Positions 2,396 through 25,562 of a stretch of DNA of 64,000 nt are shown piece after piece. Both the position numbers and the translations under genes were made by a program. The notes below the pieces were generated by a model. It was not told the origin of the DNA and did not search any database. It worked only from the letters and a program-made list of their open reading frames with translations. Each line of letters opens with the position of its first letter. The first letter of the stretch is position 1. Origin of the DNA: Chloroflexota bacterium (lineage in GTDB: Bacteria; Chloroflexota; UBA11872; VXOZ01); contig OZ244145.1 in NCBI GenBank assembly GCA_965216245.1, forward strand, positions 1,804,097 to 1,868,096, in the 5' to 3' direction.

Positions 2396-2655
2396 CTAGC
2401 AATGAGACAAATAGACACCTGGTGGCCAATCGGACAGACAGCGCGTCTGGATTGCTATTCTGAATCGCTCACAGTAATCGTTGGCCTCGTTCAGAGTAGT
2501 ATTGTGGCAACTTGATTGACCGACAGTTCACAAACAGCCTATGATGCGGCTAGGTCACATGAAAGCAAATTCCGAGGAGAGGACTCTCTGTATCTGGATA
2601 GAGGAGAGTACAAATGCAATTCAGATTGCCGATAGAGGATAGAGGAGGCAAAGCA

Positions 2656-3525
2656 ATGGATCGGGTGGTCCCGCAGGCCAATTCTACAGGCTCGGGCCGC
2701 AGGATCGCCGGTCGGCGAAAGAACGGCAAAGGCCGAATGATCGCCTTTGGGTGGTACGGTGGTAAGTTCAGCCACCTAGATTTCATACTGCCGAACATAC
2801 CGTCGGATGCGCAGCATTTCTGTGATGTGTTCGGCGGCTCAGCCGCAGTACTTATCAACCGCCTGCCCGCACCTGTAGAGACGTATAACGACATAGACTC
2901 GGAGCTGGTAAATTTTTTTAGGATGCTGCGGGATGATGGCCCAGAATTGACACGGGCGATTAGCCTGACTCCGTTTTCCAGGCAGGAGCTTGCTCGTGCC
3001 TGTGAATACGAGCCGGGACTCTCCGAACGGGAACGCGCTAGACGGTTCTTCGTAAGGGCGCGCCAGACGCGAACCGGCTTAGCGCAGCGGAGTAGCGAGG
3101 GAAGGTGGGCTCACTGTGTCCTCACTTCTAGGGCCGGCATGGCGGGGGCGGTCTCTAGGTGGCTAGGTTCCATGGACGGCCTCGCCGAGATCACGCTGCG
3201 GCTCCAACGGGTTCAAATTGAAAATGCCCCGGCTCTCGACGTGATCCGGCGTTATGACACTCCGAATACAGTCTTTTACTTGGATCCTCCCTATGTCCAC
3301 TCGTCGAGGGGAGACACCGCGGCATATATAAACGAGATGAATGATGACGAGCACGTTGAGCTCGCCGAAGTACTGTCGGCCATTCGTGGCCGAGCTGTCT
3401 TGTCCGGCTATAGAACATCGCTATATGACCGCATTTACAAGGATTGGAGGCGCATAGACGCACCCGTGCGAACCGCCAACTCCGTCCGTCAACCTCGACA
3501 AGAGTCTTTGTGGATTAATTTTTGA
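2656..3525 (+). CDS. D12-class (Dam-like) N6-adenine DNA methyltransferase
   Basis: FGWYGGK (Dam-family AdoMet/N-terminal motif), FGGSAAV, and a DPPY catalytic motif late in the protein (alpha-class order). AGGAGG RBS 7 nt before the ATG at 2656; the ORF track starts upstream at 2614. Confidence 0.8.
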   Translation: MDRVVPQANSTGSGRRIAGRRKNGKGRMIAFGWYGGKFSHLDFILPNIPSDAQHFCDVFGGSAAVLINRLPAPVETYNDIDSELVNFFRMLRDDGPELTRAISLTPFSRQELARACEYEPGLSERERARRFFVRARQTRTGLAQRSSEGRWAHCVLTSRAGMAGAVSRWLGSMDGLAEITLRLQRVQIENAPALDVIRRYDTPNTVFYLDPPYVHSSRGDTAAYINEMNDDEHVELAEVLSAIRGRAVLSGYRTSLYDRIYKDWRRIDAPVRTANSVRQPRQESLWINF

Positions 3526-3528
3526 ACC

Positions 3529-4599
3529 ATGAATGAACAGGAATTGACCTGCTGGTTGGAAAACCAATGGGAGCAGGTTCTATCGGCTTATGAAAGCGAT
3601 CCTGATCAGGAAATCGACCGTTTCATTGATTCATCCGTTGTTAGTATCCGGTATGCGATCTTGACCCAGCTACTTGGCAAACTTGCTGATCCAACTCGTG
3701 ACCTACTTTGTCTTCAAAGAGGTAAAAAGGATTCGGAGGTAGGGCTAGCTGGACGTTGGGACCCGAGAGGCTTCTGTACCCGCGTCGTGGTTCCTTGGAT
3801 TCAGAGACATCAAAGTGTGCTTGGAACAAGCGGTGACCCTTACGTAAGTAAGCCGCTCCGTCGCCCGCGGCTAGACCAGGGGATGGAGTCCCTTAATAAC
3901 CGCCAAGAGTGGAAAGCGATTGTCAGTTTCTTAGCTACATTGCAGGAGGATTCCGACCCGGCAATGGTCGAGAACGGAGTCCAAAGATGTCTAAAGAGCA
4001 TCGCACGTCGGCTAAGGGATCAGCAGGTAGACTATCCGATACCTATGCGTATCGGTTTGGACCGTCTCTGTGACATACTGGATCAATACCTAGCTTTAGC
4101 CAACGGTGGGTTGCGGCCTATGGTCGTGGCGACAGCACTGATGCAGACATTGGGACGGGCATACTCCCTCTTCCCAAGAGTCGAGAGCCAGGGCGTAAAC
4201 GAGGCAGATGCAGCAGCCGGGGTGCCCGGCGACGTATTGTGCTACGGAGAGGATGACGCACTTGCTCTAGCGGTCGAGGTGAAGGGACATGAGCTAACCC
4301 TCATTGAGGTTGAGTCCACGATAACGAAAGCGCGCTCCAGTCGTGTTACAAACACCCTCTTTGCGACCCCCGGCCTTGCCTCTGCTGACAGGGAAGCCAT
4401 AGAGGCGAGAATTACAGAGGAATTTGCACAGGGAAGCAACATCTATAAAAGTTCAATTCAATCGCTGGCTCGCAATTCATTCATGCTCCTCAAAGAAGAA
4501 TGGCGTGTGGAGTTTCTCTACGCAGTATGCTCAGAACTGGATGCCCGAAGCAGTCAACCCTCCGACCGACTTGCATTCGCTGAACTGCTAACCGCATGA
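3529..4599 (+). CDS. putative Type II restriction endonuclease partner of the Dam-like MTase
   Basis: Starts 3 nt after the MTase stop (operon-like). C-terminal segment GDVLCYGEDDALALAVEVKG fits a PD-x(n)-(D/E)-x-K nuclease core. No other recognisable domain. Confidence 0.5.
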   Translation: MNEQELTCWLENQWEQVLSAYESDPDQEIDRFIDSSVVSIRYAILTQLLGKLADPTRDLLCLQRGKKDSEVGLAGRWDPRGFCTRVVVPWIQRHQSVLGTSGDPYVSKPLRRPRLDQGMESLNNRQEWKAIVSFLATLQEDSDPAMVENGVQRCLKSIARRLRDQQVDYPIPMRIGLDRLCDILDQYLALANGGLRPMVVATALMQTLGRAYSLFPRVESQGVNEADAAAGVPGDVLCYGEDDALALAVEVKGHELTLIEVESTITKARSSRVTNTLFATPGLASADREAIEARITEEFAQGSNIYKSSIQSLARNSFMLLKEEWRVEFLYAVCSELDARSSQPSDRLAFAELLTA

Positions 4600-8467: not shown

Positions 8468-9769
8468 GTGCGGCCTCTCCTCGCGTCTCTCTTTCTGCTG
8501 CTCCTTGTTGCTTTCTCTGCCACATCGGTACACGCCACAGACTGTCAGTTCGTGCTCGGCTTCGAGACTCTGCGCGACCTGATCGGTCACGACGTAGTTG
8601 GCGAGTGCCTGGAGAACGAGCACTACGAAGCCAACGGTGATGGACTGCAACAGACCACGGGCGGCTTACTGGTATGGCGCAAAGCAGATAACTGGACCGC
8701 TTTCACCGACGGCTACCGCACGTGGATTAACGGTCCCAACGGTCTTGAACAGCGACTAAACACCGAACGGTTCGAGTGGGAGTATGACTACGCGCCGGGC
8801 GGCGGCATCGCCACGCCGACGCCTACTCCCATGGAACTCAATCCCGAGCACATCCTCGTTCCCGTGCTAGAAGTGATGCGATCGACGCCAAGTGGTGAAG
8901 AGGCCTACCAGAACTTACTCCGATTGGGCGTCGGCATAACCTTTGGCGGCAATCCGCCGTGGGGAAAGTACATATTTGATGTGCCAAGCAATCGCATAGT
9001 GCTTTTCGGAAACTATGTACACGAGGCACCGGACACAATTGCCCATCTCGTTGCTGAGGCGACTGAGCTCGCAAAGTGGTTCCATGTACACGGCGAGCCA
9101 ACGACTCCCGAGGAATGCATCGAACGTAAGTATTTAGTCTTGACGTCACGGGAAATATGGTTGACAGAGTTCAACGGTCACTCTCCAGTGTCAGATGTGG
9201 AGAGGCGTTTGCGAGCGCAAGAATATGTGCATCACCGAATCCACCGCGATTCGGAATTCTGCCCTGCCGTGCCAAGAGCGTCTGCGCGAGATGCGGATAT
9301 TGCGCGAGCGCTTGAGACCATGAGCCAGACGGCGACCGGTAGGCGCGTACATGATTGGTTCGTAGAATCCGGTGTGAGTGCGTACTTTGATCAGATAGAA
9401 TACCGTGGCGGTGTCTACTCTCCAAGGAATAACTACATTGCAATCCACGAAGCCCACCGCAATAGCCCGGTGAACGCCGCCGCCTGGTTCGTGCACGAGA
9501 CCATTCATGCGATGACACACGACGAACCAGAGTCTCAGGAAGAGTGCTATAGGCAAGAAGAGCGTGCGTTTAGCTGGCAAGCCCAATGGTGGATGGAGTA
9601 CTTTGGCAATGGCGGGAGCGGGTTGCAGGATGAAGACTCTAAGTCACAGGACTCAATCTTGAGGGACTACCTCGGTGGAACGCTTCTCAACGCTATTCGG
9701 GGAACACGGGCCTACCAGGACTATTGTGGCGCTTACCACGCTGGCGACATACCCTTGCAAATGCATTGA
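8468..9769 (+). CDS. secreted modular protein: signal peptide, conserved Cys-containing N-domain, Pro/Thr linker, HExxH (putative zinc-metallopeptidase-like) C-domain
   Basis: GTG start with GGAG RBS and hydrophobic signal peptide. The N-domain is ~70% identical to that of ORF 17253. TPTPTP linker. HETIH motif plus downstream conserved E in the C-domain, which is homologous to ORF 21535. Confidence 0.65.
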   Translation: MRPLLASLFLLLLVAFSATSVHATDCQFVLGFETLRDLIGHDVVGECLENEHYEANGDGLQQTTGGLLVWRKADNWTAFTDGYRTWINGPNGLEQRLNTERFEWEYDYAPGGGIATPTPTPMELNPEHILVPVLEVMRSTPSGEEAYQNLLRLGVGITFGGNPPWGKYIFDVPSNRIVLFGNYVHEAPDTIAHLVAEATELAKWFHVHGEPTTPEECIERKYLVLTSREIWLTEFNGHSPVSDVERRLRAQEYVHHRIHRDSEFCPAVPRASARDADIARALETMSQTATGRRVHDWFVESGVSAYFDQIEYRGGVYSPRNNYIAIHEAHRNSPVNAAAWFVHETIHAMTHDEPESQEECYRQEERAFSWQAQWWMEYFGNGGSGLQDEDSKSQDSILRDYLGGTLLNAIRGTRAYQDYCGAYHAGDIPLQMH

Positions 9770-9939
9770 CTGCAGCGAAAGACACATTCTTAGTGGCTGT
9801 ACTGGACACTATTTCGCTGCAAGCTAGTTGTTTCGTGTAGCTTCTTACGGCGCACTTTTCCTGGGAGGGGGCCGCGGGAAAAGATGGTTGTATGACCTTG
9901 CTTCCGAGGGGAATTATATACGAAAGTAAACAGGGCTGC

Positions 9940-11529
9940 CTATAATGACCATACCGTTTGCGGCAATCCAGGCTGTGTCATAGGCTTGCCAGTGAATGGG
10001 TCTAACATAGGTGGCACATGCGGCCTACGCCGGTCAAAATAGTCTTGAATCGACCATAGTCCAACACGTGGGTATCGTTCTGCTCCCACCACAACATTGC
10101 CCATCCTAGCAACGTCGCTTTGTGCGCTTGGAGTAGAAACAGATTCTAGCGTGATAAACAGGCCAAGCGCGGCATCTTCCATACCTACCACGCCTATGAA
10201 GTCGCGTAATTGCGAGAGTGAGAAGTGTCCGCTTTTGACTTGCGCCAGCACTAGCCTTGACTTCGTATTGTCCGGCTCTACAAGCATCATGCCACGCCCG
10301 TCTATCCCGCCATCTCCAGTCTTTTTCTTGTTCGGCACAAGTCCAGGGACTAGATAAATGGCCCACGATTCGAAGTCAAAGCGGTTGAGTTCTGCAAGCC
10401 GTCTAGCTGAGGCAAGGTCTGCCGGAATGCCCTCAATATGCGCCGTCACACCTAATGGCTTCAAGCGATATTCCTGCACTAAGTCAATGGCAAATGACGA
10501 AATGTCTATTCCGGCCCATCGCCTACCTAATCGCTGCGCCGCGTCAACGGTAGTACCGCAACCTGCAAAAGGGTCAAGGACAAGATCACCAGGATTGCTG
10601 GATGCTTCGATGATGCGCTCTAGTAAGGCGCGTGGCTTTTGTGTGGGATAGCCTAGGCGCTCTTTGGCTTGTGAGTTCACTGGTGGAATGTCAATCCATA
10701 CATCGGTGGTTGGTTTCCCAGGTGTGTCTTCAAGGTAACGCTTATATCTAGGCATGTTGGTTCTTGTGAAGACTATCCGACCTTTGGCCATGAGATCGTC
10801 AATTCTGTCTTGATCCCATGCCCAATGACGCCCAGAAGGGGGATCAAGTAGCCTATTGCCAAACCTTCGAGCTGGTCCTGACCCAGACCCATGTGCGGCG
10901 ACAAGCTGATAACGTCTTCCATCTTCATCTACGAGTCTGTAGTGACTCTCAATGTAGCTCAGATCATGCGGTTGGTATTGAGGATTCCACTGCACCTTTC
11001 CGGTCTTAGAATAGTAAAGGATCGTATCGTGAACCGAATTGTAGTTGCTAGCTCCTCCGTGAGAAAGTGATCGCTGCCAAATGACCTCACGACGAAAGTT
11101 CCCATTTCCAAACACCGAGTCCATAACCGCTTTGAGGTAGTGTGAAGCGTAAGGATCGCAATGAAGATAGATACTGCCAGTAGGTTTCAAGAGACGCTGC
11201 ATTTCTGCAAGCCGTTCAGCCATATAGGTGAGGTAGGCAAGCATCCCCGACTCGCCAAGCATGAAATGTAAGCCGTGAATGACTTGGTGCGCAGGATGCG
11301 CTATGGCATTCAGGATTGCTTCGGTGCGCTCGGCGGCTTTGTCGTCCCAATGCCACGTATCGGTGAACGCCCGCATTTGTGCAGGCACGTTGTTCTCGGT
11401 GCCAAAGAGGATATTGTAGTCGGTGTTGGAGTTGAACGGGGGATCGAGATATATGAGGTCTACGCACTCGCTCGGCCACTTGCGCATCCAGTCAAGGCAA
11501 TCACCATAATAAAGTGTTTGCGGTGTCAT
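9940..11529 (-). CDS. beta-class (PF01555-like) DNA methyltransferase fused to a C-terminal Mrr-like restriction-endonuclease domain
   Basis: DPPF motif IV near the N-terminus, DPFAGCGTT motif I later (beta order). C-terminal GDGGIDG...AQVKS matches the Mrr catalytic-domain signature. Confidence 0.8.
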   Translation of the reverse strand: MTPQTLYYGDCLDWMRKWPSECVDLIYLDPPFNSNTDYNILFGTENNVPAQMRAFTDTWHWDDKAAERTEAILNAIAHPAHQVIHGLHFMLGESGMLAYLTYMAERLAEMQRLLKPTGSIYLHCDPYASHYLKAVMDSVFGNGNFRREVIWQRSLSHGGASNYNSVHDTILYYSKTGKVQWNPQYQPHDLSYIESHYRLVDEDGRRYQLVAAHGSGSGPARRFGNRLLDPPSGRHWAWDQDRIDDLMAKGRIVFTRTNMPRYKRYLEDTPGKPTTDVWIDIPPVNSQAKERLGYPTQKPRALLERIIEASSNPGDLVLDPFAGCGTTVDAAQRLGRRWAGIDISSFAIDLVQEYRLKPLGVTAHIEGIPADLASARRLAELNRFDFESWAIYLVPGLVPNKKKTGDGGIDGRGMMLVEPDNTKSRLVLAQVKSGHFSLSQLRDFIGVVGMEDAALGLFITLESVSTPSAQSDVARMGNVVVGAERYPRVGLWSIQDYFDRRRPHVPPMLDPFTGKPMTQPGLPQTVWSL

Positions 11530-11541
11530 GACTGTTCCCGC

Positions 11542-11694
11542 CTACTTTTTCTTCTTCGGCGGCGGACTCTTTAGCACAGCGCGGGCCACGTCCTTGACCG
11601 GCGCATCAATGCGCGGTGGCATTGTCTTAGTGACAGGTCTCCCCACCTTGCCTTTGCCTAATGCTCTAGTCGCTTTGGGCTTGGGATTATCCAT
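11542..11694 (-). CDS. conserved 50-aa basic micro-ORF (KGKVGRPVTK AT-hook-like), first gene of the MTase operon
   Basis: Found by hand-translation; it is below the ORF-track size cutoff. It is 80% identical to the micro-ORF at 19608..19739 in the same position of copy 2. Stop lies 12 nt before the MTase ATG. Confidence 0.45.
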   Translation of the reverse strand: MDNPKPKATRALGKGKVGRPVTKTMPPRIDAPVKDVARAVLKSPPPKKKK

Positions 11695-11710
11695 AGTGGC
11701 GGCCTTTCGC

Positions 11711-11723
11711 GGGGGGGGGGGGG
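11711..11723. repeat. G13 homopolymer tract in the leader of the micro-ORF/MTase operon (C13 on the coding strand)
   Basis: Read directly from the sequence; the orthologous position in copy 2 is C5 (GGTAACCCCCGGCG). Confidence 0.9.
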
Positions 11724-11742
11724 TTACCTATTTACACTGTAA

Positions 11743-11754
11743 ACAGTATACTGT
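11743..11754. promoter_or_regulatory. perfect 12-bp palindrome ACAGTATACTGT in the divergent promoter region of the cargo module
   Basis: Seen in the sequence. In copy 2 (19547..19559) the corresponding dyad ACAGTATACTGTT has two mismatches at this position, but a near-identical shifted perfect 12-bp palindrome is present. Candidate operator. Confidence 0.4.
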
Positions 11755-11865
11755 ATTTGTAAGCGTTCTTTTGAAGAGTAACACGGGAATGAGAAACACA
11801 AAGGAGAAAGGCAATGCGAACCAAAGAGGAGACCTACCTGACAGCCATGGTAGGAGTGAGGGGGT

Positions 11866-12417
11866 ATGGCTGAATGGCTAGACGATGGACGCGTAATAGT
11901 TGGCCTATTTAGCGCCGGAGCGATACTGGTTGTCGCTCTCGTTGGCGGAGTTATCAAGCTTTGCCTTTGGATTGGCAGCACTGGCACCGATGTGAACAAT
12001 CTAGAAAAGTCCGCCGGAGAAGATCGGTCTACCTTCAAGGACATTGCAGGGGAGATCAAGAAGGATATAGATATAATTAGTGCAGATATCAAAGGCATCC
12101 TTGGCAGACTCTCGCCTTTAGACCCTCTTGTCCAAAAGGCCAGCCCGCTTCAATTGACTGAAACTGGCAAGAAAACCTCCCAGGCACTAAAGGCTAGAGA
12201 ATGGGCAGAAGAACTAGCACCCGGACTGCATGACCAACTGAAAGACAAAGAGGACTTCGAAGTCGATGCATTTTGCCAGAAGTACGTTCTCCGAAAACTG
12301 GCTCCGGCAACGGAAACACGTGTGTTGCGACGCGCCTACGAAACTGGCACTGAAGAGGCAGATATCAGAAAAGTGCTAGCAGTCGTCCTTAGAGACGAAT
12401 TGCTATCGTACCGTTAG
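11866..12417 (+). CDS. small membrane-anchored coiled-coil protein of the cargo module (unknown function)
   Basis: N-terminal TM helix followed by a coiled-coil region. The C-terminal 60 aa (EDFEVD.FCQ...RKVL.VVLRDELLSYR) are conserved with ORF 18911..19444. Confidence 0.6.
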   Translation: MAEWLDDGRVIVGLFSAGAILVVALVGGVIKLCLWIGSTGTDVNNLEKSAGEDRSTFKDIAGEIKKDIDIISADIKGILGRLSPLDPLVQKASPLQLTETGKKTSQALKAREWAEELAPGLHDQLKDKEDFEVDAFCQKYVLRKLAPATETRVLRRAYETGTEEADIRKVLAVVLRDELLSYR

Positions 12418-12428
12418 GCGGATGTGTG

Positions 12429-12470
12429 AAAGACAGAAGCCCCCGCGTCATTGCGGGGGCTTCTGTCTTT
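12429..12470. terminator. 18-bp-stem hairpin between the convergent small-protein gene and the transposase
   Basis: AAAGACAGAAGCCCCCGC-GTCATT-GCGGGGGCTTCTGTCTTT. The copy-2 equivalent has compensatory A/T changes that preserve the stem. Confidence 0.6.
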
Positions 12471-13409
12471 CTACGCAATCAAGTCTTGGTACCGCAGGCG
12501 CTTGCCCTGCATGTTCTGCACCATGTGGCGCATTTGGTCTATCGTGTTCGCGGGCCGGTCATTGTGCCGTCCGGAAAACTCACTCACGTAGCGGTCTAGG
12601 TGCTTCACGCTCATGTGGTGGTAGGTTCCCACGTAGCCGCGCTTCAAGAGAGACCAGAACGATTCGATGCCGTTGGTGTGAATTTGCTCACGTACGTACT
12701 CGCGGGCGGTGTGCCTGACTGTCTCATGCTCTACGTTGCCCAATCCCCGATATCCGCCATGATCGTCGGTAATGACTTTGGAGCCAGCTTTCACCTTATC
12801 GTTGACAAAGCCCTCTAGCGTCTCGCTGTCCGTGGCGGGGATGGAGATTGCAGACACTTTGTTGGACTCTCGCTCTTTGGCACCGATCACTGGTGTCTTG
12901 CCTACCGGCCCGCGCCCCGCGTTCAGCTTCTTGGATGCGTGTTTGTTGCGTTCCTTGCCGCCCATATACGTCTCATCAATCTCAGTGGTTCCAGCAAACG
13001 GCTCAATCTCATTGTCCCACGCCCTGCGGATTCTGTGAGCCATGTGCCAAGCGGTCTTTTGTGTCACATTGATATCGCGGTGCAATTTCATGCTGGAAGT
13101 ACCCTTGACGCCTGTAGTCATGAGATACATCGCCATCGCCCACTTGCGGTAGCCGATCTTGCTGGACTGCATCACCGTGCCGGTCTTGACCGAAAAGAAC
13201 TTGCGGCAATCGGAGCAATGGTATGGCATGGTAGGATGGTTGCCTTTGGCTCCCACGCGCTCGCCATTGCAGTATGCGCAGCGCAAACCGTCCGGCCAAC
13301 GTTCGCTAACAAACCACTGTTCGGCAGTTTCGTCATTCGGGAACATCTCGTGCAATTCGAGCAAGGATATACCCTTGCGGTAGTGCTTGCCAGGTGCTTT
13401 ATTCGCCAT
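12471..13409 (-). CDS. IS1595-family (ISXO2-like) transposase
   Basis: N-terminal zinc ribbon (C-x2-C...C-x2-C) and DDE domain layout typical of IS1595. 97% identical to ORF 17907..18857. Confidence 0.9.
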   Translation of the reverse strand: MANKAPGKHYRKGISLLELHEMFPNDETAEQWFVSERWPDGLRCAYCNGERVGAKGNHPTMPYHCSDCRKFFSVKTGTVMQSSKIGYRKWAMAMYLMTTGVKGTSSMKLHRDINVTQKTAWHMAHRIRRAWDNEIEPFAGTTEIDETYMGGKERNKHASKKLNAGRGPVGKTPVIGAKERESNKVSAISIPATDSETLEGFVNDKVKAGSKVITDDHGGYRGLGNVEHETVRHTAREYVREQIHTNGIESFWSLLKRGYVGTYHHMSVKHLDRYVSEFSGRHNDRPANTIDQMRHMVQNMQGKRLRYQDLIA

Positions 13410-13515
13410 CGTTACCCTCGTTTGCTGCTCAATTCCTACTCTCTAATTATAGCAGCAAAGTAAACATATGGCAAGGGATTTCAGGTACTTTCGTTTACTT
13501 ACGTATATAATTCCC

Positions 13516-13797
13516 CTTCCGAGGGAGCCAGTTGACACGTTCAACAAGCTTTGGGAGGATGAAGCAGAGGTAGTATTGTATGGATGGCCTATCGGACTGG
13601 GTTCAAGTGATTGTCGCTATCGTGGCGCTCTTGGGTCTACTTTGGCGATTGAAACCCGCATCTCAGGATTAGAATCACGCTTAGGTGAGCGCATTGCCCA
13701 TCTTGAAGCAAGTTCCGCTGGCTTGTCGAGTCGGCTTTCGCGGATTGAAAACGTGCTGGACCAGTTCTTGATGCGGACTGGCAGGGGGGAGCAATGA
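13516..13797 (+). pseudogene. 5'-clipped small coiled-coil protein gene; its original start and first 5 codons remain at 9892..9908 on the other side of transposon copy 1
   Basis: Joining 9892..9908 to 13524.. with one TSD copy removed gives a continuous ORF MTLLPREPVD... The ORF-track entry 13468..13797 is a fusion that starts inside the transposon IR. Confidence 0.5.
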
Positions 13798-17252: not shown

Positions 17253-17812
17253 ATGTACCGCATACCTGTACTTTTCTTGTTCCTGTTCATCGCATTGTTT
17301 CCCACCACCGCATCCGCCGCCGACTGCGAGTTCGTGCACGGCTTTGCGACCCTGCGCAATCTCATCGGTCACGAGATTGTGGGCGAATGCCTGGAGAACG
17401 AGCACTACAACGCCATCGGCGATAGCAACCAACAAACCACGGGCGGCCTACTGGCCTGGCGCAAGGTAGATAACTGGACTGCCTTCACTGACGGCTATCG
17501 CACCTGGATCAACGGGCCGAACGGGCTGGAACAACGCCTAAACACCGAACGCTTCGAGTGGGAGCAAGACCCGCCTGCGCCAGCTCCTGAGCCGACACCG
17601 GTTCCAACGCCGGCACCCGTAGCTGTCGAGTGCCCGGATGGGGACACCGTGCGGGGACTAGTGTCTGAGTCTCTGCAAATTAGCGGCATGCGCGGAGACC
17701 TTTTGAAGAAGTGGATGTACCAGCTAAGCGTGGGGATCGACAGCGTCGAATGGGCTTGTGCGTGGTTCTACTACTTGGGTTATGGGCCGGATAACAAGTG
17801 GGTCTTTGTAAA
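17253..17812 (+). pseudogene. 5' portion of a secreted modular HExxH-protein gene interrupted by transposon copy 2
   Basis: Signal peptide plus N-domain paralogous to 8468..9769. The reading frame continues exactly into 21520.. once copy 2 and one TSD are removed. Confidence 0.65.
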
Positions 17813-17906
17813 GGGAATTATATACGAAAGTAAACGAAACTGCCAAGAATCCCTTGACCGCTGTTTACTTTACTGCTATAATTAGAGAGTAGGAATTGAG
17901 CAGCAA

Positions 17907-18857
17907 ATGAGGGCAACGATGGCAAAGAAGGCACCTGGCAAGCACTACCGCAAGGGCATATCCCTGATTGAATTGTACGAGATGTTCCCGAACGACGAAA
18001 CTGCCGAACAGTGGTTCGTTAGTGAGCGCTGGCCCGATGGACTGCGCTGTGCCTACTGCAATGGTGAGCGCGTGGGAGCTAAGGGTAATCACCCGACAAT
18101 GCCCTACCACTGTGGCGATTGCCGCAAGTTTTTCTCGGTCAAGACCGGCACGGTGATGCAGTCCAGCAAGATCGGCTACCGCAAGTGGGCGATGGCGATG
18201 TATCTCATGACTACAGGCGTCAAGGGTACTTCCAGCATGAAGCTACACCGTGATATCAACGTGACGCAAAAGACCGCTTGGCACATGGCACACAGAATCC
18301 GTAGAGCGTGGGACAATGAGATTGAGCCGTTTGCTGGAACCACAGAGATTGACGAAACCTATATGGGCGGCAAGGAACGCAACAAGCACGCATCCAAGAA
18401 GCTGAACGCGGGGCGCGGGCCGGTAGGCAAGACACCAGTGATCGGTGCCAAAGAGCGAGAGTCCAACAAAGTGTCTGCAATCCCCATCCCCGCCACGGAC
18501 AGCGAGACGCTAGAGGGCTTTGTCAACGATAAGGTGAAAGCTGGCTCCAAAGTCATTACCGACGATCATGGCGGATATCGGGGCTTGGGCAACGTAGAGC
18601 ATGAGACAGTCAGGCACTCCGCCCGCGAGTACGTACGTGAGCAAATTCACACCAACGGGATAGAGTCGTTCTGGTCTCTCTTGAAGCGCGGCTACGTGGG
18701 AACGTACCATCACATGAGCGTAAAGCACTTAGACCGCTACGTTAGCGAGTTTGCAGGACGGCACAACGACCGACCGTCAAACACGATAGACCAAATGCGC
18801 CACATGGTGCAGAACATGCAGGGCAAGCGACTGCGCTACCAGGACTTGATTGCGTAG
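17907..18857 (+). CDS. IS1595-family (ISXO2-like) transposase
   Basis: 97% identical to ORF 12471..13409. Preceded by a 9-bp-stem inverted repeat (TTTGCTGCT..AGCAGCAAA) with a TATAAT in the loop. Confidence 0.9.
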   Translation: MRATMAKKAPGKHYRKGISLIELYEMFPNDETAEQWFVSERWPDGLRCAYCNGERVGAKGNHPTMPYHCGDCRKFFSVKTGTVMQSSKIGYRKWAMAMYLMTTGVKGTSSMKLHRDINVTQKTAWHMAHRIRRAWDNEIEPFAGTTEIDETYMGGKERNKHASKKLNAGRGPVGKTPVIGAKERESNKVSAIPIPATDSETLEGFVNDKVKAGSKVITDDHGGYRGLGNVEHETVRHSAREYVREQIHTNGIESFWSLLKRGYVGTYHHMSVKHLDRYVSEFAGRHNDRPSNTIDQMRHMVQNMQGKRLRYQDLIA

Positions 18858-18899
18858 AATGACAGAAGCCCCCGCGTCATTGCGGGGGCTTCTGTCATT
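18858..18899. terminator. 18-bp-stem hairpin between transposase and small membrane-protein gene (copy 2)
   Basis: AATGACAGAAGCCCCCGC-GTCATT-GCGGGGGCTTCTGTCATT. Confidence 0.6.
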
Positions 18900-18910
18900 C
18901 ACACATCCGC

Positions 18911-19444
18911 TTAACGGTACGATAGCAATTCGTCTCTAAGAACCACGCCGAGCACCTTTCTAGTGTCTGTGTGGTCGACACCAGTCTCGTAAGCGCGTCG
19001 GCGCACACGTGCTTCCATTTCCGGGGAGAGTTGATCGAGCACAAAGGTTTGGCAAAACATATCCACCTCAAAATCCTCTTTGCCCTCAAGTTCCCCGCGC
19101 AGTGTGGGGGCTATTTTCTTCGCCCAATCCCAAGCTCCCATCGCTTTTGCCGATTCTTCGCCGTGCTCCGTCAAGCTCAGTGGGCTTTCAACCTTGAACT
19201 GTGCAGGCGGCATCACTTTGAAGATGCCGAGAATGTGGTCTCTGATTTTCTCAATGGCTTTCTCAACTTTGTCCATACTGCCATCGAGTTTATCTATCCT
19301 ACTGTCAACAGCATCAAGTCTAGTATCAACCTTCCCTGTCCAGCGAGCAAAGCCAAAATGCCAAGCGGCAAGAGCTATGATTCCAACGGTGCCAGCACCA
19401 ATGACCGCAGCAATGATTGTGCCTAAATCCAACCATTCAGGCAT
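18911..19444 (-). CDS. small membrane-anchored coiled-coil protein, paralogue of 11866..12417
   Basis: Same architecture and conserved C-terminus. Confidence 0.6.
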   Translation of the reverse strand: MPEWLDLGTIIAAVIGAGTVGIIALAAWHFGFARWTGKVDTRLDAVDSRIDKLDGSMDKVEKAIEKIRDHILGIFKVMPPAQFKVESPLSLTEHGEESAKAMGAWDWAKKIAPTLRGELEGKEDFEVDMFCQTFVLDQLSPEMEARVRRRAYETGVDHTDTRKVLGVVLRDELLSYR

Positions 19445-19607
19445 ATCCCCTCGCTCCTACCCTGGCTGTCAGGTAGGTCTCCTCTTTGATTCGCATTGCC
19501 TTTCTCCTTTGTTTTTCTCATGCCCGTGTTCCTCCTCACAAAACGCCTACAAATACAGTATACTGTTTACGGTGTAAAGAGGTAACCCCCGGCGAAAGGC
19601 GCGAGCA

Positions 19608-19739
19608 ATGGACAAGCCAAAAGCGACTAGCAAAGGCAAGGTGGGGAGACCAGTCACCAAGACCATGCCGCCGCGCATAGATGCGCCGGTCAAAGACGTG
19701 GCCCGCGTTGTGCTCAAGGCTCCGCCGCCGAAGAAGTAG
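19608..19739 (+). CDS. conserved 43-aa basic micro-ORF upstream of the MTase (copy 2)
   Basis: Hand-translated: MDKPKATSKGKVGRPVTKTMPPRIDAPVKDVARVVLKAPPPKK. The stop lies 7 nt before the MTase ATG. Confidence 0.45.
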   Translation: MDKPKATSKGKVGRPVTKTMPPRIDAPVKDVARVVLKAPPPKK

Positions 19740-19746
19740 CCAAGAA

Positions 19747-20988
19747 ATGGCTACTTCAAATTGGGCAAACCGCTCCATCTTCACCGGTGACAATCTCGAT
19801 ATCATGCGCGGCATGAATGCGGAGACGGTTGACCTTATCTATCTTGATCCACCATTCAACTCTAACAAGAACTACTCCGCTCCAGTAGGTTCTAAAGCCG
19901 CAGGCGCAGCGTTCAAGGACACCTGGACGCTATCCGACTTAGATGTTGCCTGGATGGGTCTCATTGCCGACCAAGAACCTGCTATCTACAAGCTACTAGA
20001 GACCGCCCGACTGACACATGGCAAGGGAATGCAGTCCTACTTGTGCATGATGGCAGTGCGATTGCTGGAGATGCGTCGGTTGCTAAAAGAGACGGGGAGC
20101 ATATATCTGCATTGCGATCCGTATGCTAGTCACTACTTGAAGCTGCTAATGGACGCGGTATTTGGGAGAGCGAACTTTAGGAATGAAGTTCACTGGTATT
20201 ACTACAACAAGATGCATGACTATAGAAAGAAGCTGTTTGCTGCAGCAACAGATACTATTCTGGTTTACGTAAAGGATGTCAGCGCAGACTTCTTTTTTCA
20301 GCAGCAGACCGAACCCCGTGATAAGCCAATGCGTCAACTGAAAAGAAGAAAAGTCGAAGGTCGAATGGTCAACGCCAGAGATGCAGACGGAAACCTCATG
20401 TATCAGGTCAAGACAGAACGAACTGTTGATAATGTTTGGCGTATCCCTGCACTTCAGCCCGCATCCAAAGAGCGAACGGGGTTTCCCACGCAGAAGCCCC
20501 TGGCTCTTCTCAAACGCATCATTAGAGCTAGTTCTAGTCATGACGATGTCGTGCTAGACCCATTTGCCGGATGCGCAACCACTTTAATTGCTGCCCAAGC
20601 TGAAGGAAGGCAATGGGTGGGAATGGACCTATCACCAAAGGCGGTCGATCTAGTAAAGCAGCGCATTGATGCGCTGTCTGCTGTACCCATTACAATCGTT
20701 GCACGGACAGATATACCACAGCGCACAGACATTGATGCACCTATCCATTATCGGCAGAACAAGCACGTGTTATACGGTCAACAAGAGGGATTGTGTAACG
20801 GCTGTAAGATGGACTTCCCGTTCAAGATATTCGATGTAGACCACAGAACACCGAAATCTAGGGGCGGTACCGATCACCTGGATAACCTGCAATTGCTATG
20901 CTCTTCGTGCAATCGCATCAAGGGCGATAGACCCATGGAATATCTGATGGCGCAACTGTCGAATCAAGGCACGGCAAGCGTCTATTAG
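19747..20988 (+). CDS. beta-class DNA methyltransferase fused to a C-terminal HNH endonuclease domain
   Basis: DPPF then DPFAGCATT motifs. The MTase domain is ~60% identical to 9940..11529. C-terminal CNGC...DHRTPKSRGG...NLQLLCSSCN is a canonical HNH. The ORF track starts at 19681; ATG 19747 chosen by alignment with the paralogue. Confidence 0.8.
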   Translation: MATSNWANRSIFTGDNLDIMRGMNAETVDLIYLDPPFNSNKNYSAPVGSKAAGAAFKDTWTLSDLDVAWMGLIADQEPAIYKLLETARLTHGKGMQSYLCMMAVRLLEMRRLLKETGSIYLHCDPYASHYLKLLMDAVFGRANFRNEVHWYYYNKMHDYRKKLFAAATDTILVYVKDVSADFFFQQQTEPRDKPMRQLKRRKVEGRMVNARDADGNLMYQVKTERTVDNVWRIPALQPASKERTGFPTQKPLALLKRIIRASSSHDDVVLDPFAGCATTLIAAQAEGRQWVGMDLSPKAVDLVKQRIDALSAVPITIVARTDIPQRTDIDAPIHYRQNKHVLYGQQEGLCNGCKMDFPFKIFDVDHRTPKSRGGTDHLDNLQLLCSSCNRIKGDRPMEYLMAQLSNQGTASVY

Positions 20989-21006
20989 ACGGGGCACAGC
21001 GTATAG

Positions 21007-21276
21007 TTTAGGCTATGGGAGTTGGGTAGGGCCGAGGGATGTTAAAGAGTTAACATTAGTCCTACTGGACTAGCACTTGCTGGGTTTTGACCTCCTGTGT
21101 GGTTTCACGGGGACGGTTTTTGGACCTGGTTTGTTGCCCTGGCGTACTTGCCGGGGTTTTGTAATGCACTTAGAGGCGTTACTTCTAGAAGTGCTTCTGG
21201 AGGTACTTCTAGATTTGGAAGTAGCCATTCTACTGGCTCCTTTCCCCACAGCCCTACCCAACTCTGATAGCCTAAA
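21007..21276. mobile_element. 270-bp MITE-like element nested in the tail of copy 2, with 25-bp terminal inverted repeats
   Basis: TTTAGGCTATGGGAGTTGGGTAGGG at 21007 versus the reverse complement of 21252..21276 (23/25 match). Interior has palindromes ATGTTAA-N4-TTAACAT and CTTCTAGAAG. This segment is absent from copy 1. Confidence 0.4.
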
Positions 21277-21519
21277 CCTTGCAGTCAGTTTTGTGGTCGC
21301 TTACAATAGAGAAAGCGGTAGCCCGCTCACATGGCTGAGGTGTCCGGGAAAGACATGGCCTCAGCCATTGGCTTTTAAATGACTCTACCATAATGCGCTA
21401 CGGAATCCCATACCCAAACGCGGGATATAGTCATTCCGCTTTCCGCTACTACAAGATATAGGCCGCCTGGTCTCTATAGGCCAGTATAGCACGTCTGTTT
21501 ACTTAGGTATATAATTCCC

Positions 21520-22254
21520 TTTGTAAACTCGTATGTGACAGACCAGGCTTACCGGACAGATGTCTGGTGCACCATCTATCCGCACTTGAGCAATCTCAAT
21601 CGACAGGAATTACACTCTTTTCTCCAGTCCTTTCAGTTAGCCACTGCCGCATCCTTTTCTTTTGATAGATGCCAGGTGACAGCAAGCGTTCAGCCGACGC
21701 CACGACCGCAGCCCACACCAACTCCAACACCACGGCCCACGCCGGCACCTACGCAGTACATCGATCCCGCGTTGGCCGGAGTCATACGTGCACTGCAAAA
21801 CACCGAGTACGGCAAGGTACTGCACCAAGCGCTGCGTGAGAGCAACGTGGTCCACGTGGGCTATAAAGACCTCGCCTATCTTGGTTATTCTATCGCGTCC
21901 TTCAAACCCACTCTTGAAGGCGACCAGATCTTCTTAGGCGATTCCGTGCGCAACGAGAGCGTGGATGCCAAAGCAGCCATGCTCGCACATGAGATCTACC
22001 ACGCCTGGTTTTGGGCCACCGGCCGCCACGTGCGCTCAGTTGAGGGGTGCTACGAAGAAGAAATACAAGCAACCCGCGCACACGCCAAGTGGTGGTACGA
22101 GCGGTTTGGAGAGAGCGGTAAGCCCAGGCCGTCAGGAGAGGAGCGTAAGTTCAACGCGGCCGTGGCGCGGTGGCTGGAAGGGGAAATAGGAGACTGGATA
22201 CGTGCCGAGGAACTGTACCAGACACAGTGTTCGCATGAATACTATACGAATTGA
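21520..22254 (+). pseudogene. 3' portion of the interrupted secreted HExxH-protein gene (PT linker plus HEIYH domain)
   Basis: The ORF-track 21535..22254 frame continues from 17812 across the insertion. HEIYH...E aligns with HETIH of the 8468 protein. Confidence 0.6.
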
Positions 22255-25437: not shown

Positions 25438-25551
25438 CCCTCACCGCGTGATCCAGCCTCGTGGACAAAATCCCGCATAGGCCCCTTTGTTTTGGTCTGC
25501 GCCGCTATCCCGACCGCTCCGCCCTCCGACGGTTTCCAAAACAGGGGGACT

Positions 25552-25562
25552 CCCCCCCCCCC
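25552..25562. repeat. C11 homopolymer inside an AACAGGG...CCCTGTT inverted repeat, followed by GGTTACA-containing direct repeats
   Basis: Read directly from the sequence. Confidence 0.85.

Follow-up and report, generated by a model that had tools for sequence, protein, structure and literature searches.

A copy-specific poly-C tract between the divergent genes of an IS1595-family transposon: an unproven contingency repeat at the boundary of exchangeable methylase-nuclease cargo

Given the long homopolymer next to a methylase gene in this Chloroflexota genome, we wondered whether the tract switches expression of the methylase, or whether it is a slippage-prone repeat of little or no consequence for expression. 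The tract occupies positions 11711-11723 of the window (the whole 64,000-nucleotide stretch that was analysed) and reads as G13 on the plus strand and as C13 on the minus strand, which is the sense strand of an operon formed by a micro-ORF and a methylase-nuclease gene. In classical methylase switching, the repeat either is part of the reading frame or forms the spacer of the −35 and −10 hexamers; in phasevarions (Type III mod, Type I hsdS/hsdM, and Type IIG enzymes such as Campylobacter cj0031), an in-frame repeat frameshifts the protein ON/OFF. That the tract exists, and that it is a statistical outlier in the window, could be read directly in the sequence. Specifically, a first-order Markov model predicts 0.002 G/C runs of at least 13 bases in 64,000 nucleotides, and the G9 match count of the window was equalled in 0 of 100 shuffles. 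A census of the whole window revealed a geometric fall-off of G and C run lengths with a maximum of 6, the exceptions being this G13 and a C11 on the plus strand at 25552-25562; within the methylase ORF itself (11529..9940), the longest G/C run does not exceed 6. With 13 bases, the tract also exceeds the length of about 8-9 from which poly-G/C is expected to slip. Its predicted propensity for slippage is therefore in line with established knowledge and with Neisseria, where G/C tracts of 9-20 are treated as phase-variable (PMC5953494).

The tract is part of the first of two related elements in the window (copies 1 and 2), and both are complete IS1595-family transposons, each encoding a DDE transposase, bounded by terminal inverted repeats and flanked by an 8-bp target duplication of its own. 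Copy 1 (3607 bp, 9909-13515, minus strand) ends in the inverted repeats GGGAATTATATACG(A/T)AAGTAAAC(A/G) at 9909-9932 and 13515..13492 and is flanked by the duplication CTTCCGAG at 9901-9908 and 13516-13523; copy 2 (3707 bp, 17813-21519, plus strand) has the same inverted repeats and the 8-bp duplication TTTGTAAA at 17805-17812 and 21520-21527. The four occurrences of the 24-nt end repeat thus form two inverted pairs (9909/13515 and 17813/21519). Profile matches (PF12762, 1.7e-38; NF033547, 192 bits against a cut-off of 75) place the transposases, located at 12471..13409 on the minus strand in copy 1 (312 aa) and at 17907-18857 on the plus strand in copy 2, in the IS1595-family DDE type. Both copies share the same gene set, consisting of the transposase, a 183/177-aa gene, a micro-ORF of 43-50 aa and a methylase-nuclease fusion. 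In copy 1, the fusion (529 aa, 9940..11529, minus strand) joins an N6/N4 DNA methyltransferase to an Mrr-like (PD-(D/E)XK) domain, Mrr_cat, while in copy 2 (19747-20988, plus strand) an N6/N4 methyltransferase is joined to an HNH nuclease domain, the two methylase domains being 39% identical. In their DDE_Tnp_IS1595 transposase, terminal inverted repeats and 8-bp duplications, the two copies resemble known IS1595-family elements with passenger genes, from which the sub-family described here differs by its conserved micro-protein gene and its exchangeable methylase-nuclease cargo.

The 183-aa gene of copy 1 (11866..12417, plus strand) encodes an N-terminal membrane segment, matches no family and belongs to a protein cluster with a single member among 15 billion proteins, so that no second strain with copy 1 came to light; its 177-aa counterpart in copy 2 (19444..18911, minus strand) likewise has a membrane segment and matches no family. 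Ahead of the 183-aa gene lies a 19-codon upstream ORF (11814-11873) with an AGGAG ribosome-binding site, whose stop overlaps the 183-aa ATG (ATGGCTGA); the DNA of this ORF is highly conserved in copy 2 and in two related elements (L004 and L001) and contains the inverted repeat CCTACC...GGTAGG. Between the convergent 183-aa and transposase genes, a perfect 44-nt hairpin with a 19-bp stem (12428-12471), found again in copy 2 at 18857-18900, is probably a bidirectional terminator. The DNA separating the two copies is ordinary chromosome, holding recF and a metallo-hydrolase gene. A composite transposon with defence cargo between the copies was rejected, as each copy has its own target duplication and the housekeeping gene recF lies in between. 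The target of copy 2 was apparently a gene paralogous to the 433-aa one at 8468-9769 (flanks 17253-17812 and 21535-22254): the DNA of the upstream fragment is 78% identical to 8489-8788, and a 239-aa ORF downstream shows a 27% match to residues 275-421 of the 433-aa gene. Elsewhere in the window, a separate restriction-modification pair is formed by a D12-class adenine methyltransferase (2614-3525) and a SacI-like endonuclease (3529-4599).

Relatives of these transposons were reached via protein clusters and micro-ORF homologues, which yielded 11 loci representing 8 further distinct elements and, together with copies 1 and 2, a comparison set of ten. The same inverted repeats were seen on both sides in five of the 8 further elements (L001, L010, L011, L013 and L014), and one end was seen in all but one of the others; the 13-nt ends, GGGAATTATATAC, are identical in these five and in copies 1 and 2. 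Every related element carries the transposase, and what differs is the cargo past the micro-ORF, which can be a methylase-Mrr fusion, a methylase-HNH fusion, a methylase alone, a Type IIG enzyme, or nothing. The relatives found here come from Chloroflexota MAGs and unclassified metagenome contigs, one of them from an Aplysina aerophoba sponge metagenome. Two of the transposons have other restriction enzymes as immediate neighbours (L010 1-2252 and L014 1-2562): L010 adjoins an MmeI-like gene, the 3′ end of which overlaps the end repeat of the transposon by about 35 nt, and L014 adjoins a 1045-aa Type IIG gene. This arrangement is a hint that such elements enter defence islands or add to them. 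Beyond this set, a variable-gap pattern of the control region found nothing in genome contigs, and a 20-mer of the conserved leader gave a single chance match in genome contigs (a Phycisphaerae MAG) and three chance matches in metagenome contigs. Aligning the micro-protein to viral contigs and running megablast against plasmids and phages gave no match, exact look-ups of the window proteins returned none on record, and a non-exhaustive literature search found no earlier description of this IS1595 sub-family.

Comparing the tract site across the ten elements, we found a C run in only three of them, namely C13 in copy 1, C5 in copy 2 (19586-19590) and A3C6 in L004, and the run is limited to the architecture with the inverted 177/183-aa gene. 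Two elements whose 529-aa methylase is orthologous to that of copy 1 and whose divergent region is related (L001 and L002) have no run at this site, nor do six other element types, and 85 kb of related loci contained no G/C run of at least 7. Both flanks of the C5 in copy 2 align with copy 1, so that the length difference represents an expansion in place, and the C13 appears, from this alignment, to be real and to have grown by slippage from a short C run in this copy alone. The idea that the tract had expanded only in this copy is thereby upheld, the two closest homologues having C5 and C6 and all other relatives none. A different explanation would be that the organism itself has a shorter run or none, and that homopolymer error or polishing lengthened it in the assembly. 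Long-read errors fall mainly in homopolymers, and sibling assemblies carry long-read style contig names (ctg..._52x_c). Against this stand the flanks, which are collinear with copy 2 exactly at the C5, the position of the tract inside a 3.7-Mb contig, and the size of the difference, since consensus errors of +7-8 bases are not expected. We therefore consider an artefact very improbable, and the exact count of 13 may be off by 1-2 if the assembly was built from long reads.

The comparison also revealed that copy 1 becomes similar to the micro-ORF cassettes of L008, L010 and L013 only 0-3 nt past the tract, which indicates that the tract marks the upstream edge of an exchangeable micro-ORF cassette. 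In L010, a strong terminator-like hairpin (3950-3995; GAGCACCCCGTGACTTCACGGGGTGCTC followed by TTTCTTT) immediately precedes the ribosome-binding site of the micro-ORF and occupies the cassette boundary at which copy 1 carries its C-tract, i.e., a different element in the same place.

The gene that opens this cassette is the micro-ORF, found at 11542..11694 on the minus strand in copy 1 (50 aa) and at 19608-19739 on the plus strand in copy 2, and retained in all related elements together with its GAAAGG ribosome-binding site. Its variable columns number 7, 4 and 19 at the three codon positions, and its codon differences are 317 synonymous vs 92 non-synonymous, a substitution pattern that marks it as a real gene under purifying selection. 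Since it is kept where no methylase follows and is under purifying selection, the micro-ORF is a core transposon gene, and the same two observations rule out a leader peptide of the methylase. The micro-protein family comprises 16 representatives among 1.84 billion proteins, all of 45-73 aa and without annotation, which share the motif (K/R)GRP..K.MP.RIDA.PE.IA.AVL; no match was found in Pfam, NCBIfam or PADLOC. In copy 1, the protein consists of an AT-hook-like RGRP motif followed by one helix, and its structure model is a single helix of modest confidence (pLDDT 69). A C-protein controller, i.e., a small helix-turn-helix protein acting on a C-box, was rejected in view of the missing family match, the single helix and the presence of the gene in methylase-free elements. 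Given the AT-hook-like RGRP motif on the one hand and the AT-rich transposon ends and operator on the other, it is a reasonable inference that the micro-protein binds DNA, with the AT-rich ends or the operator as candidate targets.

With respect to the position of the tract, the layout given in the original prediction is correct: on the minus strand, palindromes at 11731-11754 are followed by the tract, by GAAAGG (11708..11703, separated from the tract by 2 nt and from the start codon by 8 nt) and by the ATG at 11694. The methylase starts 10 nt past the micro-ORF stop (7-10 nt across both copies). The palindromes, three overlapping ones (TTTACACTGTAAA, ACTGTAAACAGT and ACAGTATACTGT) that are conserved in copy 2 and L004, presumably form a shared operator with divergent promoters; a LexA box was discarded on reading the sequence, as they lack the CTGT-N8-ACAG spacing. 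The only good −10-like hexamer of the control region, TATACT, lies within ACAGTATACTGT and, owing to this palindrome, occurs on both strands (11747-11752 on the plus strand, 11750..11745 on the minus strand). Promoter scans returned CTCACA-18-TATACT toward the micro-ORF in copy 2, which puts the C5 in the leader, the equivalent pair TCGACA-17-TACACT in L001, and TTTACC-18-TATACT toward the 177-aa gene in L004, with the C run just upstream of the −35; in copy 1 the −10 is the same, and the −35 elements of both promoters fall below the scan threshold. Transcription starts were placed from consensus alone, and Chloroflexota promoters are poorly characterised. If the operon of copy 1 uses the palindromic TATACT as its −10, the tract would span roughly +16 to +28 of its transcript, ending 2 nt before the ribosome-binding site. 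The term “methyltransferase-operon leader” is only partly apt: the tract does lie in the putative leader of the micro-ORF/methylase transcript, while the operon belongs to the cargo of an IS1595 transposon and its first gene to the transposon core.

Under closer inspection, this position does not support the classic mechanism of methylase switching. The tract lies in no reading frame, the antisense 124-aa ORF ending before it (TAA 11726-11724) and the micro-ORF frame having an in-frame TAG upstream of it, and these two stops rule out a frameshift or a fusion. Scans of copy 1 and its homologues found no promoter-like −35/−10 pair spanning the tract on either strand, and a role as promoter spacer was dismissed because none of four homologues has a usable −10 within 16-18 nt downstream of TTTACA. 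Since the tract is thus outside all ORFs and all −35/−10 spacers, the gain or loss of a base can neither frameshift a protein nor re-space a core promoter. With the phasevarions, it shares a long homopolymer adjoining a DNA methyltransferase/restriction gene and presumed slipped-strand mispairing, but there the repeat sits inside the methyltransferase or specificity ORF, whereas here it is non-coding and a frameshift is impossible. Another parallel is with Neisseria opc, porA and fetA, where the regulated gene is preceded by a poly-C/G tract of 10-14 outside coding sequence (fetA, with C10-14, is classed as intergenic; PMC5953494), yet those tracts set the −35/−10 spacing. Of 248 phase-variable Neisseria restriction-modification calls, 57 are intergenic and 191 genic, and PhasomeIt labels a repeat within 200 bp of an ATG “transcriptional” (PMC5953494).

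A tract in a leader could also act through RNA, as in Helicobacter pylori, where a G-repeat in the tlpB leader is targeted by the small RNA RepG and its length translates into graded expression (PMC8295292). The likeness is a homopolymer in the 5′ leader near the ribosome-binding site, the placement in the leader being conjectural in our case. We computed the folding of the leader RNA for C0 to C18, and the predicted unpaired probability of the ribosome-binding site (0.82) and of the AUG (0.44) was constant from C3 up to C18. Tract length thus has no predicted effect on cis folding from C3 upward, and length-dependent leader folding was ruled out in silico. The tlpB mechanism further requires a complementary small RNA; no Rfam family was found in the window, and its only complementary run is the minus-strand G11 (25562..25552) of the second outlier, in a terminator-like hairpin at 25562..25545. 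There, the minus strand reads G11-AGT-C5-TGTTTTGG, with one over-long arm, in a 1.75-kb gene-poor stretch, and this hairpin has nothing to do with restriction-modification genes. A C11 away from methylases means that methylase genes are not the only place where this genome has long G:C runs, which weakens the argument from association. It is tempting to speculate that a hypermutable poly-C leader makes the IS1595 restriction-modification cargo phase-variable in sponge-associated Chloroflexota, perhaps by base-pairing to some G-rich RNA, of which the G11 transcript end at 25562..25545 would be an example, although we would give this scenario only a small chance of being right.

Alternatively, the tract may act in the opposite direction. 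For the 183-aa gene, it would abut the upstream side of the −35 of a candidate plus-strand promoter (TTACCT-17-TATACT), which lies directly downstream of it, and changes in its length could shift the UP-element zone in phase or alter its composition, as with a rheostat. There is precedent for such a mechanism in the T-tract of Helicobacter pylori sabA, which is located directly upstream of the −35 and shifts the alignment of UP-like elements (PMC4081817), and in L004 the corresponding hexamers were recognised as a promoter by the scan. The sabA tract is, however, A/T-rich, whereas the tract here is G:C. Moreover, the copy 1 hexamers are under the scan threshold, there is no sign of an A/T-rich UP-like element or an activator site upstream, where the region consists of the ribosome-binding site and start of the micro-ORF, and the 183-aa protein has no known family to suggest a function. 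We consider tuning of the opposite promoter improbable.

What remains is to weigh whether the micro-protein and the methylase-nuclease are switched, or stepped in their expression, by slippage of the C-tract in their leader, which would silence and reactivate the cargo in the population. Screens for phase variation would pick out such a 13-mer just ahead of a restriction-modification gene: it is well above slippage thresholds and all but adjoins the ribosome-binding site of the operon. It has expanded in one copy on a conserved background, and the step from 5-6 to 13 could reflect selection. The lineage is host-associated (sponge) Chloroflexota rich in defence genes, and, the micro-ORF promoter of copy 1 being below the scan threshold, the true promoter could be elsewhere. 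Nonetheless, with the tract outside ORFs and core-promoter spacers, no length-dependent cis RNA structure predicted and the orthologous methylase of L001 and L002 doing without a tract in both assemblies, we regard a true contingency switch as rather unlikely. With frameshift and re-spacing excluded and the cis RNA route unsupported, a graded effect or no effect remains. We thus lean, with moderate confidence, towards a slippage-prone repeat that leaves expression unchanged or alters it in a graded manner at most. In this scenario, a short C run, which is C5-C6 in the two closest homologues, would have expanded by slippage in copy 1 only, within the control region that the divergent genes of the transposon share, and its length would be expected to change often. 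Taken together, the tract is best described as an unproven contingency repeat rather than a demonstrated ON/OFF switch.

If the tract does modulate expression, repeat-driven restriction-modification contingency would extend to Chloroflexota and to insertion-sequence cargo, and the switch would travel together with the defence gene. Should a hypermutable leader indeed make the cargo phase-variable, the transposon would represent a mobile, self-contained contingency locus beyond the classical host-adapted pathogens. The firmer result is the context, i.e., IS1595-type transposons in which one methylase-nuclease cargo replaces another at a constant cassette edge, with a homopolymer at that edge, and this transposon family offers a tractable case of defence-gene mobilisation and shuffling.
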